From: an uncultured Gammaproteobacteria bacterium
GTDB taxonomy: Bacteria; Patescibacteriota; Patescibacteriia; Patescibacteriales; UBA12465
Assembly (NCBI GenBank): GCA_964540285.1
Contig: CAZILW010000004.1
Location: 1-47,566, forward strand
Length of the DNA: 47,566 nt
Reading direction: 5' to 3'
In this document: positions 8,381 through 11,442 of the stretch, one piece after another
How the letters are laid out: each line of letters starts with the position of its first letter
Numbering within the stretch: the first letter of the stretch is position 1
Made by a program: the position numbers and the translations under genes
The notes under the pieces: generated by a model
The model's database searches: none
The model's input: the letters and a program-made list of their open reading frames with translations, nothing else
What the model was told of the DNA's origin: nothing

Positions 8381-8451
8381 TCGGGGATCGTCTAATGGTA
8401 GGACTCCAGGTTTTGGTCCTGGCTATCGGGGTTCGAATCCCTGTCCCCGAG
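8381..8451 (+). tRNA. tRNA-Gln(TTG)
   Basis: Acceptor TCGGGGA/TCCCCGA, anticodon arm CCAGG-TTTTGGT-CCTGG, T arm CGGGG-TTCGAAT-CCCTG. CCA is not encoded. Confidence 0.95.
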
Positions 8452-8656
8452 CGAAGAAAAAAATACAGCTTATGCTGTATTTTTTGATGAGCGAAGGGGA
8501 AGCGAAGTGCCTGCGCACTTCGCGTCAGGGATGAGAAAGCCGGAGCCATGTGCACGAAGTGCACGGGCGAGGCCAGGCCAGAGCGCTTAGTGAGCGACGA
8601 GCGTTAGCGAGGAAGCGAGACTTAGCGACGCGTGGCCGAATCCCTGTCCCCGAGCA
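8445..8656 (+). repeat. tRNA-linked GC-rich multi-hairpin element, copy 1
   Basis: 8445-8602 is identical to 10206-10363, and 8612-8656 to 10406-10450. It ends with an exact 19-nt copy of the tRNA-Gln 3' end (8637-8655 = 8434-8452). Confidence 0.92.
8458..8485. terminator. Terminator hairpin after tRNA-Gln (repeated at 10219-10246)
   Basis: AAAAAATACAGC-TTAT-GCTGTATTTTTT. Confidence 0.8.
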
Positions 8657-8661
8657 AATCT

Positions 8662-8691
8662 CAAAAACACCTTATTTTACAGGTGTTTTTG
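8662..8691. terminator. Terminator hairpin after the second tRNA 3'-end copy
   Basis: CAAAAACACCT-8nt-AGGTGTTTTTG. Confidence 0.7.
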
Positions 8692-8729
8692 TATATATTT
8701 TGGTTCGAATCCTTGTTTAGTAATATAAT

Positions 8730-9284
8730 ATGTATATGGAAAATAATAAGATTTATACAATTAATGAAATTTTGCAAAAAGCCCAAGATTCTTTTATCTC
8801 AGATTCTGTCAGTTTTTTAAAAAACAGGGATTTTAAAAAAATTAGAGAAGAGGCTATTTATGTTGCTCTTTTTCTAAAAGGACAGCAAAAATATTATTCA
8901 AAAAAATATAAAATAAAATTAAGCGAGAACCCGGACTGCATTGCTATAGATAAAAACAATGAAAAGAATAATATAGGATTTGAGGTGATGGTTATTAATG
9001 AGTATAATTTAGATAATAATGAAATTGGGTTTAGTGTAGCTGATTTTATTTTTAAGAAAAAAGGGCTAAATAATTATGGTAATAATTGTTATTTATTAAT
9101 TCCAATTCTTAAAGAAGGGCAAATTGATATTGACTTAACTGATTTGAAACAAAGTATAATAAAACATAAAATGAAAGGCAGTTTTAATTATAAAGATATA
9201 TTTATTATTTTTTGGAGATCTAAAGGACAACTTCAATGTATTAGTTTATTCAAGGACTTTAATGATTTAAATTATAAAATTTAA
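8730..9284 (+). CDS. Hypothetical protein, possible PD-(D/E)xK-like nuclease fold
   Basis: 184-aa ORF; REE...ENPDCIA...IGFEVM resembles an E...PD...ExK-type active-site arrangement (inference). Confidence 0.7.
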   Translation: MYMENNKIYTINEILQKAQDSFISDSVSFLKNRDFKKIREEAIYVALFLKGQQKYYSKKYKIKLSENPDCIAIDKNNEKNNIGFEVMVINEYNLDNNEIGFSVADFIFKKKGLNNYGNNCYLLIPILKEGQIDIDLTDLKQSIIKHKMKGSFNYKDIFIIFWRSKGQLQCISLFKDFNDLNYKI

Positions 9285-9290
9285 TTGTTT

Positions 9291-9323
9291 TAGTTAGAAC
9301 ATTGTCCACTAACGACCCTGAGC
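9291..9323 (+). repeat. Degenerate att-like junction related to the tRNA-Gln 3' end
   Basis: TAGTTAGAACATTGTCCACTAACGACCCTGAGC aligns with TAGTTCGAACATCGTCCGCGACCCCGAGC at 10185-10213. Confidence 0.7.
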
Positions 9324-9325
9324 AC

Positions 9326-9360
9326 TTGACAAAAAAGTATACTTATAGTATACTTTTTTG
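9326..9360 (+). promoter_or_regulatory. Near-consensus sigma70 promoter overlapped by a perfect 14-bp inverted repeat
   Basis: TTGACA (9326-9331), 17 nt, TATACT (9349-9354); inverted repeat CAAAAAAGTATACT-TAT-AGTATACTTTTTTG (9330-9360). Confidence 0.75.
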
Positions 9361-9401
9361 ATAGTTAAAATTATTGTCGAACCTTAAAAACCTGATATAT
9401 T

Positions 9402-10109
9402 ATGAATAATTTGGACGAAATATTGTATAATTTGGGTCTAGAACAAAAACGGGCAGATGAATTAACCCTCTCGGAAAAGAAAAATATTTTTCAAATGGCA
9501 ATAGATTTTTGTTATGCTTGCCACTTAGAAGATATTGTCGATTTAGTTCCTTTAATAATTCGTAACAACGAACTAAAAAAAGGATTAAAAAGAGCAAGGG
9601 AAAAAGCACCGCATTGCCTTGATTGGCACTTTACAATTGCAAAATTATTCACTGAGCCGCAACGTAGCAAAGAGATGATGTGCATATATAAAAATTCAGT
9701 TCCATATGGGGACCAAGTTGGCTATAGCGCTCTTTATTACAAATTGAAATTTATTGATGAGGTCTCGGAGCCTAATCGCACCGATGAATTAGAAAAATTG
9801 TTGACCGATTTAATAAGAGATTATTGCTCAAAGGTTGACTATTGGGAGGCTGATCCTGAGTGGGATGGAATTTTTCCGCAAAATGGTTGTGAAAAGATTA
9901 TTAACGCTATAGATGCCGAAAAAAGATTAGAAAGTATTAAAAGAATTACTGATAATTTTTTTATCAACGATCTTTTAGATGAGGCGGATAAAGCGGCAAA
10001 TTTTCTTCCTGATTCGGAAAAAAAATGCATGGCGCTAAAGATAAGAGTCAGGAGACCTTTTGTGAAAAGATTTAGATTGCACTACGTAGCAAGAATGATT
10101 GGTTGTTAA
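9402..10109 (+). CDS. Hypothetical (orphan-like) protein
   Basis: 235-aa ORF with its own promoter and downstream hairpin; no recognisable motif. Confidence 0.75.
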   Translation: MNNLDEILYNLGLEQKRADELTLSEKKNIFQMAIDFCYACHLEDIVDLVPLIIRNNELKKGLKRAREKAPHCLDWHFTIAKLFTEPQRSKEMMCIYKNSVPYGDQVGYSALYYKLKFIDEVSEPNRTDELEKLLTDLIRDYCSKVDYWEADPEWDGIFPQNGCEKIINAIDAEKRLESIKRITDNFFINDLLDEADKAANFLPDSEKKCMALKIRVRRPFVKRFRLHYVARMIGC

Positions 10110-10130
10110 AATCATTTTCCAATGTATTTT

Positions 10131-10170
10131 AAAGGCACGCCCGATTAATCGGAAGCGGCCTTTTTTATTT
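10131..10170 (+). terminator. Probable intrinsic terminator
   Basis: AAAGGC-ACGC-CCGAT-TA-ATCGG-AAGCG-GCCTTT followed by a T tract. Confidence 0.55.
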
Positions 10171-10184
10171 ACTTAAAATAATTC

Positions 10185-10213
10185 TAGTTCGAACATCGTC
10201 CGCGACCCCGAGC
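10185..10213 (+). repeat. att-like junction sharing GTTCGAA and CCCCGAGC with the tRNA-Gln 3' end
   Basis: GTTCGAA-12nt-CCCCGAGC here versus GTTCGAA-7nt-CCCCGAGC in the tRNA. Confidence 0.7.
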
Positions 10214-10450
10214 GAAGAAAAAAATACAGCTTATGCTGTATTTTTTGATGAGCGAAGGGGAAGCGAAGTGCCTGCGCACTTCGCGTCAGGGATGAGAAAG
10301 CCGGAGCCATGTGCACGAAGTGCACGGGCGAGGCCAGGCCAGAGCGCTTAGTGAGCGACGAGCAAAGCCACGTGCGAACAAAGTGAGCTATACGTGGCGT
10401 AGTGAGAAGCGAGACTTAGCGACGCGTGGCCGAATCCCTGTCCCCGAGCA
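10206..10450 (+). repeat. tRNA-linked GC-rich multi-hairpin element, copy 2, with a nested 32-nt hairpin
   Basis: Matches copy 1 except at 10364-10405, which carries GCCACGTGCGAACAAAGTGAGCTATACGTGGC. Ends with the tRNA 3'-end copy at 10431-10449. Confidence 0.92.
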
Positions 10451-10451
10451 G

Positions 10452-10493
10452 TGATCTGTACCCCAAAAAGTAGACAAACTTTGTCTACTTTTT
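10452..10493 (+). mobile_element. Possible solitary IS3-family terminal inverted repeat remnant merged with a terminator hairpin
   Basis: TGATCTGTACCCCAAAAAGTAGACA resembles IS3/IS150-group ends (from memory). Hairpin AAAAAGTAGACAAA-C-TTTGTCTACTTTTT. No transposase present. Confidence 0.4.
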
Positions 10494-10613: not shown

Positions 10614-10913
10614 ATGAAAAATAAAATTAAAAATATTACAATTTTGTTTGATGATTACTCAAGCTCTAATTTCTTGTTTGAAGAAACAAAAAAAGCAGTA
10701 AAAGAGCTTAAGCTTTCATTTCCAATTGAACAAGTTAATGATAGGAAAAAAATGAGCAAACTAGGGTTAAACTCAGGGCCAGCCCTGCTTATTAATGAAA
10801 TCCCAGTTCTAGTTGGTGATTTTTATAAAAAAGAAGATATTAAAAGCGCTTTAGGTTTTTTTATGAAAGAAAAATCATGTGGCGGATCTTGTCATTCTTG
10901 TAGCCATTGCTAA
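10614..10913 (+). CDS. MTH895-like thioredoxin-fold protein lacking the canonical CxxC, with a Cys/His-rich tail
   Basis: EETKKAVKEL...IEQVND...GPALLINE matches the small redox-disulfide family pattern; ends in SCGGSCHSCSHC. Confidence 0.7.
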   Translation: MKNKIKNITILFDDYSSSNFLFEETKKAVKELKLSFPIEQVNDRKKMSKLGLNSGPALLINEIPVLVGDFYKKEDIKSALGFFMKEKSCGGSCHSCSHC

Positions 10914-10929
10914 TTGATCTTATTTTCTG

Positions 10930-10958
10930 TTGACATAAAGCTTAACTTTATTTATAAT
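10930..10958 (+). promoter_or_regulatory. Perfect sigma70 consensus promoter
   Basis: TTGACA-17nt-TATAAT, followed by AAAGGAG (SD) at 10981-10987. Confidence 0.8.
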
Positions 10959-10995
10959 TATTAGTTGTTTAACAATTTAAAAAGGAGATTTTGTT

Positions 10996-11442
10996 ATGAA
11001 AATACTAGAGTGGTCCCGTCGTTATAATGGCTTGGGAGCCGATGAATACCCGGAGTTATTTGAAGTTAAAGCCGACTGTTTATCTTCGGCCATTGAAATT
11101 GCCTCTGATTTTCCGATTGGAAGAAAAAAGAGTTTAAGCGAAAATTATAGTGCAGCTTTTGAAAAAGGAAAAACTTTTAAGCCAGAAAATGGTGTTATCT
11201 CAAACACGTCTACTCAAACAGCTGCTTTCATTTTAATTTCTGAGAAGGAAACAGTTGGCGGTAGAAAAAGAAGGGAGGCTATTTTTCTTTTAAGAAAAAA
11301 AGAAAATGAGACGTGGATTGTTCAATGCATTAAAACCGTCTCCAACAATTCTTTAGGATCTTTTCAGTTATCCCTTAAAACTATTGGAAAAAACAGTATT
11401 TTCTATGTCTACTCTAATAATTTAACAGAGTTTTCATTTTAA
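10996..11442 (+). CDS. Hypothetical (orphan-like) protein
   Basis: 148-aa ORF with its own promoter, SD and downstream hairpin (AATCCCGC...GTGGGATT plus T tract, 11449-11479). Confidence 0.75.
   Translation: MKILEWSRRYNGLGADEYPELFEVKADCLSSAIEIASDFPIGRKKSLSENYSAAFEKGKTFKPENGVISNTSTQTAAFILISEKETVGGRKRREAIFLLRKKENETWIVQCIKTVSNNSLGSFQLSLKTIGKNSIFYVYSNNLTEFSF

Follow-up and report, generated by a model that had tools for sequence, protein, structure and literature searches.

The staphylococcal cassette chromosome (SCC), like its enterococcal counterparts, consists of tandem units that sit at the 3' end of one conserved gene, in SCC rlmH (orfX), with short direct repeats at their borders; the recombinases are large serine enzymes of the Ccr type, and many units are without one and need it in trans. 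The subject of this report is an array of four small modules stacked behind a tRNA-Gln(UUG) gene in a 47,566-nt stretch of Patescibacteria DNA, which is referred to throughout as the window. The array resembles SCC and pseudo-SCC in having tandem units with direct repeats at the 3' end of a single gene, many of them without a recombinase. It differs in its target, which is tRNA-Gln (elsewhere tRNA-Ser, tRNA-Ala or tRNA-His) and not rlmH; in the size of its units, which are mostly single genes of 0.5-1.2 kb; and in a far-end site that appears to be the recombinase's own coding tail. The large serine recombinase (LSR) found in the same genome scored 111 bits against a cut-off of 900 for the CcrB model.

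Further parallels were found outside the staphylococci. According to the available part of PMC3146451, the Dehalococcoides ssrA islands (DsiB) are tandem, carry ~20-bp 3'-end repeats and have a reverse-strand CcrB-like LSR beside attL, and their recombinase-less units were read as cis-mobilizable elements (CIMEs). Tandem units behind a tRNA-like gene, 3'-end repeats and enzyme-less units are shared with the window; as far as that text describes them, the Dehalococcoides insertions fall mid T-loop of tmRNA and are multi-gene, whereas the boundary in arrays of the present kind falls after position 74 at many tRNAs, and the units are tiny and joined by a structured element, here named E. The accessible text on CIME accretion (PMC5704250), in which att sites are kept without an integrase, and on tycheposon arrays at Prochlorococcus tRNA genes (bioRxiv 10.1101/2020.12.28.424599) likewise describes newcomers that push older units outward and partial tRNA copies that mark the joints. 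In those portions the systems are mostly tyrosine-driven and their remnants decayed, in contrast to the 26-nt site of the window, here named J, which is kept in 10 genera and matches a serine recombinase tail. As in a CIME, the modules are bounded by tRNA-end blocks (B) or J sites and their open reading frames (ORFs) match no recombinase family; their mobilization is predicted only. From what these three sources present, the general kind, in which units without a recombinase accumulate in tandem at the end of a tRNA, tmRNA or rlmH gene (its 3' end), is already published, and the array is probably serine-recombinase tandem accretion reduced to single genes at tRNA ends. The first-pass annotation of this DNA, made from its letters, had put the locus forward as a candidate for an undescribed system. 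For E and for LSR cassette arrays in Patescibacteria, no published description was found in the literature searched, with supplementary files outside the search; the general kind is not new.

With integrons the array shares a fixed platform, single-gene cassettes in one orientation and a recombination site at each 3' end. It is unlike them in being without IntI or an attC-type imperfect hairpin (a repeat scan found no partner arm for the J sites), in having its own promoter-like sites, and in implicating serine and not tyrosine enzymes. Nor is a platform promoter indicated, as a terminator-like hairpin stands at each joint and the promoter-like site of one cassette gene, ORF235, is its own. 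The integron-like platform with a recombinase in trans that had been proposed for this locus was thus retained as a functional likeness and rejected as an integron identity. As to recombination sites, the available part of PMC3783163 gives a rule for LSR att sites by which the zinc-ribbon motif lies 5 bp further in for attB than for attP. The 5-bp distal motif shift and the identity block at the crossover described there for A118/LI, phiC31 and Bxb1 have counterparts in the window; reuse of a hybrid site and enzyme-less arrays are not canonical.

Anatomy and insertion boundaries of the array

The source genome (G000; genomes of relatives are numbered likewise) is that of an ultra-small Patescibacteria bacterium and comprises 826 kb in 26 contigs, with ~30% GC and 94.5% completeness; the window was taken from contig C4. 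The tRNA-Gln(UUG) gene at 8381-8452 was called by ARAGORN and scored 57.9 bits with the Rfam tRNA model. Its last 19 nt, CGAATCCCTGTCCCCGAGC, are present in three exact copies (8434-8452, 8637-8655 and 10431-10449), where none was expected from 100 shuffles. The shorter motif CCCYGAGC was counted six times in the window against an expectation of 0.51, and the plus strand holds five CCC(C/T)GAGC cores (8445, 8648, 9316, 10206 and 10442), each followed by a hairpin with A/T tails. The hairpins have four different sequences for five cores because the first and the fourth are identical. Copies, cores and hairpins had been reported in the first-pass annotation and were recovered as reported, as was a T-loop remnant of the tRNA, which is probably what is left of an older site.

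Together these features divide positions 8453-10449 into four modules, each closing in a tRNA-end-like block of 19-26 nt (Table 1). The tRNA gene is followed by hairpin ta, E1 and its copy of the tRNA end (module 1); by hairpin tb, the site remnant, ORF184 and J1 (module 2); by hairpin tc, ORF235 and a recombinase tail with J2 (module 3); by ta again, E2 and its copy (module 4); and by the original terminator. The promoter-like site of the ORF235 cassette agrees with the consensus at 11 of 12 positions and is a consensus match only. No recombinase family match was obtained within the window; as had been claimed from its letters, it holds no integrase, and a whole-genome scan placed the PF00589 and PF00239 matches of this genome on other contigs.

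Table 1. Features of the tRNA-Gln array, with positions in the window
Feature	Positions	Strand	Basis or remark
tRNA-Gln(UUG)	8381-8452	+	ARAGORN, Rfam, exact-copy count
Block B0 (tRNA positions 56-74, last 19 nt)	8434-8452	+	putative left arm of attachment site
Hairpin ta, A and T tails; opens module 1	8458-8485	+	12-nt perfect arms
E1, GC-rich folded element closing in exact copy B1 (8637-8655)	8483-8658	+	fold z = -5.2; covariance model 158 bits
Hairpin/terminator tb; opens module 2	8662-8691	+	terminator scan
T-loop/T-stem truncated copy of tRNA	8702-8716	+	14/15 identical to 8430-8444
ORF184, orphan cargo gene	8730-9284	+	open frame
J1, decayed J-type site; closes module 2	9294-9323	+	B-like block scan
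Hairpin tc (9330-9360) with overlapping promoter-like TTGACA-17-TATACT; opens ORF235 cassette	9326-9360	+	kept in G024, G146, G054 and G072
ORF235, orphan all-helical cargo gene	9402-10109	+	open frame
LSR gene fossil, last 15 codons and stop; J2 inside; closes module 3	10162-10213	-	antisense translation, J pattern scan
J2 site	10188-10213	+	fits 26-nt J consensus; putative attP left arm
Hairpin ta, second copy; opens module 4	10219-10246	+	identical to 8458-8485
E2, E1-type element with extra hairpin (~10364-10400), closing in exact copy B2 (10431-10449)	10244-10452	+	fold z = -6.0; covariance model 149 bits
Original right flank of tRNA-Gln site, te (putative attB right arm, tRNA terminator; hairpin 10465-10493)	10450-10493	+	G008/G016 comparison, terminator scan

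The ftsX-tRNA-Gln gene pair is kept across the genus. In the closest relative, G008, whose FtsX is 94% identical, the tRNA-Gln gene is joined straight to a terminator equal to window positions 10450-10493, and in G016 a single E lies between tRNA-Gln and that same terminator sequence. The empty site of the one and the single E of the other therefore identify 8453-10449 as inserted material with limits that coincide with the 19-nt copies: the region is an insertion bounded exactly by copies of the tRNA end. At the same gene pair, G010, G020 and G006 hold other content without a GC-rich element, and G015, G012, G019 and G004 hold one GC-rich element each. The contigs of many relatives stop at tRNA-Gln, as repeats after the tRNA would predict. 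Stacking of modules at the tRNA end, with gain and loss exactly at the CCCCGAGC cores, had been the central proposal of the first-pass annotation, and a comparison of this locus among relatives had been its suggested check; gene content was found to vary with breakpoints at the cores, on the evidence of the empty site, the single-E site and the left boundary of the ORF235 cassette.

Both cargo genes are orphans. Among 5.8 billion proteins four homologues of ORF184 and six of ORF235 were found, and ORF184 had none in the other family genomes (0/147). Neither protein gave a Pfam, NCBIfam or PADLOC match, and their structural models, of modest confidence (pLDDT 67 for ORF184 and 64.5 for ORF235), matched no PDB fold at an E-value of 0.001 or less; nuclease-like folds returned for ORF184 at an E-value of ~0.1 were too weak and were not used as evidence. 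ORF235 was found in none of the 20 other genomes of its own genus, and copies 81-83% identical to it are present in three other genera, together with a cut copy behind ftsX-tRNA-Gln in G072, a distribution that points to horizontal movement of the gene.

The boundaries of the ORF235 cassette were compared across five genomes. The cassette starts directly after ...GAGC in four of them and one base earlier (...GAG) in G072, and the blocks that precede it differ throughout: J1 in the window, a J site in G024, a second-family GC-rich element with a tRNA-end copy in G146 and G072, and a block named K in G054. K matches J in length and at both of its ends, and it also bounds the cassette in G024 and G146, which have the cassette in common through the terminal K block and diverge right after GAGC. 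From this comparison the cassette unit was delimited as a hairpin (with promoter-like site), the gene, a terminator and a tRNA-end-like block.

Downstream of the array, window positions 10614-11442 were compared with G008, in which the thioredoxin-like ORF99 is 52% identical, its flanking genes are 73-94% identical and extra genes are present. The variable region may extend past 10493.

J sites and the coding tails of serine recombinases

The J consensus spans 26 nt, opens with the T-loop motif TTCGAA and closes with CCCCGAGC. With at most one mismatch it was found at ~100 sites, spread over 56 of the 148 genomes of the family and 10 of its 16 genera, and a reversed-pattern control gave zero everywhere. 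J sites form same-strand arrays with a spacing of 0.5-5 kb: four behind tRNA-Gln in G006, four in G069 (tRNA-Gln(CUG)), three in G064 and five in G162. The G006 array stands without E and without a detected serine recombinase. A reading of the window's junctions as degenerate tRNA ends was abandoned in view of the conservation of J and its origin in LSR coding tails.

The link to LSR genes was seen in relatives. Wherever a J site lies within 1 kb of an LSR gene (three of three cases, in G064, G023 and G162), it is antisense inside the last 16 codons of an ORF of 508-544 aa, starting 23 nt from the ORF end and with the GAGC boundary inside the ORF. The window itself retains a 15-codon fossil of such a gene: the reverse complement of 10162-10212 translates to LGVADDVRTRIILSK followed by a stop, the 544-aa recombinase of G064 ends in LGVTDDVRTKIILSK followed by a stop, and the two are identical at 13 of 15 residues. 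The 18 nt before J are the same in J2 of the window and in G064. J1 read in antisense gives LRVVSGQCSN and a stop, a degraded recombinase tail.

TTCGAA and GAGC are 16 nt apart in J but 11 nt apart in the tRNA, a shift of +5 that recurs in the tRNA-Ala island of G010. The geometry was compared with that of attP and attB on the left arms, the right arms being diverse. Taken with the coding-tail match, the shift indicates that J is an attP-type left arm derived from the 3' coding tail of an LSR gene and not a decayed tRNA end. Crossover would take place within or just after the shared CCCCGAGC.

LSR genes of the genus lie directly 3' of a tRNA gene at all six loci examined (one Ser, two Ala and three His). 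In G010 (L125:9282-10859) and G016 (L127:6999-8579), the tRNA-Ala gene is crossed over its full length, in antisense, by serine recombinase ORFs of 525-526 aa, so that in the integrated state the last ~24 residues of the LSR are encoded by the tRNA-Ala complement; in the circular form the far-end arm would give the enzyme another tail. The islands of G010 and of contig C7 of the source genome reconstruct as insertions exactly at the tRNA end, ahead of a resident unit of hairpin, E and copy. Among the recombinases of the source genome, the sole PF00589 match is a Xer-like gene on contig C1 (14615-16879, L085), followed by the gene for a 272-aa protein of which only the N-terminal part matches Xer models. 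The LSR of this genome has 429 aa and lies mid-island on C7; its best NCBIfam model was CcrB (4e-32, 111.5 bits).

Two further loci of the source genome were noted. The C7 island (C7:1-19000, L011) spans 18.5 kb, from tRNA-Ser(GCU) on one side to an E and an exact copy of the tRNA end on the other, and it encodes a type I restriction-modification system, a Shedu-like SduA, the 429-aa LSR, a terminase large subunit, a DNA methylase and an SF1 helicase. Contig C6 (1-5110) carries a Gln-type J, an E with a tRNA-Asn-type block, four ORFs and a second J; the terminator after this J has the sequence of window positions 10450-10493.

Structure and distribution of element E

E is ~170 nt long and has a GC content of ~65%, against ~30% in its surroundings. 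The two copies in the window are duplicates: 8438-8602 and 10199-10363 match at 98%, 8612-8656 equals 10406-10450, and E2 has an extra hairpin of ~33 nt relative to E1. The 5' arms of E1 pair with B1 in the manner of an acceptor/T minihelix. Both copies folded far more stably than shuffled sequence (z = -5.2 and -6.0). The fold consists of an acceptor-like helix and a T-stem-like helix, with a GC-rich domain of ~110 nt in the T-loop position and one hairpin in place of the D and anticodon arms. Across 74 distinct copies, aligned by fitting to the covariance model (which favours the resulting pairing figure), 94.7% of cells were paired and 32 of 39 pairs were changed on both sides; none of 500 shuffles reached as high, and slid partners gave 31-37%. 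In an independent MAFFT/RNAalifold run on 25 copies, 24 of the 39 pairs were compensated. On the tRNA-sense strand G-U pairs outnumbered A-C mismatches by 153 to 49.

The match between E and the preceding tRNA was evaluated on 62 distinct copies with a complete 3' end, 41 of which have a same-strand tRNA ending at most 80 nt upstream; the tested tRNAs span 15 anticodon species. The terminal 19 nt of E were identical to the upstream tRNA end in 32 of the 41, differed by one mismatch in four and by 2-7 mismatches in five, counts that describe the family and not a random sample, the loci having been picked for holding E. In a swap test the E arms gave -19.3 kcal/mol with their own block and -14.1 with the blocks of other tRNA types, and the own block ranked in the best tenth for 23 of 33 copies. 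E is a real structured family matched to the local tRNA end. For the source genome, a search of all tRNA genes for the same architecture had been suggested, and copies were located behind tRNA-Gln(UUG) (two), Gln(CUG), Cys, Asp and Ser(UGA), the last cut by a contig end, as well as at the far end of the 18.5-kb island behind tRNA-Ser(GCU). The terminal block of the E on C6 equals the tRNA-Asn end of a relative.

A pattern scan of 185,579 species genomes returned 41 stretches, of which ~34 could be chance matches by our own estimate; nhmmer supported 26 loci in these stretches, and the others were dropped. The 26 loci lie on contigs with a GC fraction of 0.30-0.56, in records that are mostly of Patescibacteria type or labelled 'bacterium', six being labelled 'uncultured Gammaproteobacteria'. 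Within the genus the covariance model detected E in 12 of 21 genomes, with 0-10 copies each and none in the single-contig genome G020, and from this patchy distribution E is dispensable. Neither the E pattern nor the J pattern had a match in viral contigs.

Known classes of RNA and mobile DNA were considered for E and rejected. At a permissive E-value of 10 or less, Rfam gave nothing on E except matches overlapping the real tRNA, and ARAGORN called only two tRNAs in the window, E not among them. A tmRNA or a split or permuted tRNA was dismissed given the lack of an ARAGORN call, the presence of a tmRNA elsewhere in the genome and the different acceptor ends of the copies. An IS110 bridge RNA, a TnpB right-end RNA and a casposon-like duplication were set aside, the genome being without IS110, TnpB, Cas1 or rve matches, and so was a retro-element, the sole reverse transcriptase being group-II-like, on another contig beside a PLD nuclease and with no link to E.

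Several related arrangements were seen at other tRNA genes. Behind tRNA-Cys on contig C14 (4504-4890), a full E with an exact tRNA-end copy is followed by a remnant made of one E hairpin and a one-mismatch copy, which fits older insertions being pushed outward and decaying. In G019 (contig C2:76423-76775) tRNA-Cys is followed by two E arranged directly one after the other, both with an exact copy of the tRNA end. A second, unrelated family of GC-rich elements, also closing in a copy of the tRNA-Gln end, was found in G072 (L082:~1260-1420) and in G146 (L078, reverse strand, ~nt 110-320 of the reverse-complemented locus), where it separates the ORF235 cassette from the tRNA or from a J site.

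Proposed origin of the array and alternatives

The array is probably a recombinase-less tandem stack of four modules at a capture site built by LSRs, functionally like an integron yet assembled from other parts. All four modules would have entered at a single point, immediately behind position 74 of tRNA-Gln(UUG), the newest probably lying nearest the tRNA. The opening hairpin of each module is predicted to terminate the tRNA transcript and, in the gene cassettes, to carry a promoter-like site as well. J resembles the tRNA end (T-loop TTCGAA ... CCCCGAGC) with the T-loop motif 5 nt further out, and the relatives suggest that the recombinase gene of J-type LSR elements holds their attP in its final ~16 codons. 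LSRs supplied in trans from complete elements would have catalysed the integration of the cassettes or of their ancestors, with the hybrid site left by one insertion reused by the next. E2 was probably resident beside the tRNA before the cassettes arrived, and E1 would have come or been copied later, E itself possibly moving by the same enzyme. A further proposal, held tentatively and regarded as somewhat unlikely, is that E is an active partner in LSR-based gene capture in Patescibacteria with recombinase-tail 3' sites, serving as a mimic of the tRNA end, as RNA or folded DNA, that would regenerate or guard the landing site.

Several observations weigh against capture by LSRs. Canonical LSRs join attP to attB only, and repeat insertion with the right arm already replaced is not textbook behaviour. 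The terminal arm of E has attB-type spacing, which disfavours its movement by the canonical reaction, and the tRNA-Ser island on C7 shows a shift of +0, so the +5 shift is not universal. The genome-wide search for recombinases recommended in the first-pass annotation was productive in so far as the Xer-like pair and one LSR on C7 were found; an LSR of the J type was not found in the 94.5%-complete genome, and the C7 enzyme is 33-38% identical to the J-linked LSRs. By hand tally, LSRs (PF07508) were present in 33 of the 56 genomes with J and in 60 of the 92 without it, with no association, and none was seen between serine recombinases and E either, G017 having five E and no such enzyme and G020 one enzyme and no E. 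Among 46 J sites on metagenome contigs that have 1.6 kb or more of flanking sequence (80 of 105 stretches examined), one is followed by a long antisense frame, and enzyme-less units are therefore the rule. Finally, no circular or excised form was seen among the assembled contigs, and none of the module junctions is spanned by an independent contig that reaches 31 nt to either side of it.

The last point bears on the possibility that the array is partly an artefact of assembly, the chromosome carrying tRNA, E and terminator and a separate circular or other molecule carrying E, ORF184 and ORF235. The independent check of the locus drew on assembled contigs from other runs only; one run that bears the label RNA-Seq probably holds DNA. 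Every such contig breaks at the 165-nt E repeat, and also at the 9330-9360 palindrome, so the order from E1 to E2 depends on the present assembly, together with synteny in relatives. Either resolution fits the repeat graph, and E copies stand at the ends of several contigs of the source genome. A contig joint 8452->10428 in one run has a short side of 22 nt only and was too weak to use. Both cassettes are covered by contigs with zero differences in runs X3 and X10, and the even depth of run X3 over flanks and cassettes (~18-27) argues mildly against two molecules. A 33-nt hairpin close to their distinct exits sets the two E copies apart, and the same unit boundaries and the J-hairpin-E adjacency recur on C6 and C7 and in the independently assembled G010 and G162. 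An artefact is accordingly regarded as very improbable.

Two biological alternatives were also weighed. The array might persist and be swapped chiefly through homologous recombination that follows DNA uptake, with tRNA, E and J/terminator as anchors, the LSR sites as scars and no site-specific enzyme at work on the units today. The genome does have a ComEC-like gene, E and J arrays persist without a detected serine recombinase in G017, G001 and G006, E copies within one genome share sub-hairpins across tRNA types in a gene-conversion-like manner, and one and the same downstream module is preceded by a Gln-type block in G010 and G020 and by an Asn-type block on C6. The anchors are short, however (blocks of 19-26 nt and an E of ~170 nt), the GAGC boundaries are base-exact in five genomes with unrelated upstream partners, which recombination of this kind would not predict, and the spread of E to 15 tRNA species with matched arms would be left without explanation, which makes this account unlikely. 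Still less probable is a folded-single-strand system in which E would be a single-stranded DNA site of the attC/CTX-like kind, recombined by the host Xer-like pair with the cassettes riding along. Pairing of the E arms with the tRNA-end copy does rebuild a duplex image of the tRNA gene end, E has Watson-Crick pairs at the G-U positions of the tRNA T-stem, E of the Gln, Ser, Cys and Ala types comes after a terminator hairpin and is therefore not certain to be transcribed, and the only tyrosine recombinases are the Xer-like pair. Set against this, the excess of G-U over A-C, taken from the model-fitted alignment, fits RNA or the tRNA-sense strand only, cassette arrays exist without any E (G006), and the gene cassettes are bounded by J and not by E. 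No sequence feature linking the blocks to the Xer-like pair was found, no search for dif-type sites having been made.

If LSRs stack cassettes behind tRNA genes as proposed, this would explain part of the variation in gene content of ultra-small bacteria, in which few mobile elements have been recognised. The locus would also offer a natural case for LSR sites, with an attP arm that is the coding tail of the enzyme and an attB arm that is a tRNA end. E and J repeats break assemblies at tRNA genes, so adjacent accessory genes are easily lost from metagenome bins. The role of E is the more interesting part of the locus: its arms match whichever tRNA precedes, and a role as RNA or as DNA can be tested directly.

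Elsewhere in the genome, contig C13 (500-4600, L084) encodes the group-II-like reverse transcriptase, which has 403 aa and scored under the cut-off of its family, a 567-aa protein and a PLD/NucT-like nuclease, a neighbourhood that may be a defence module.

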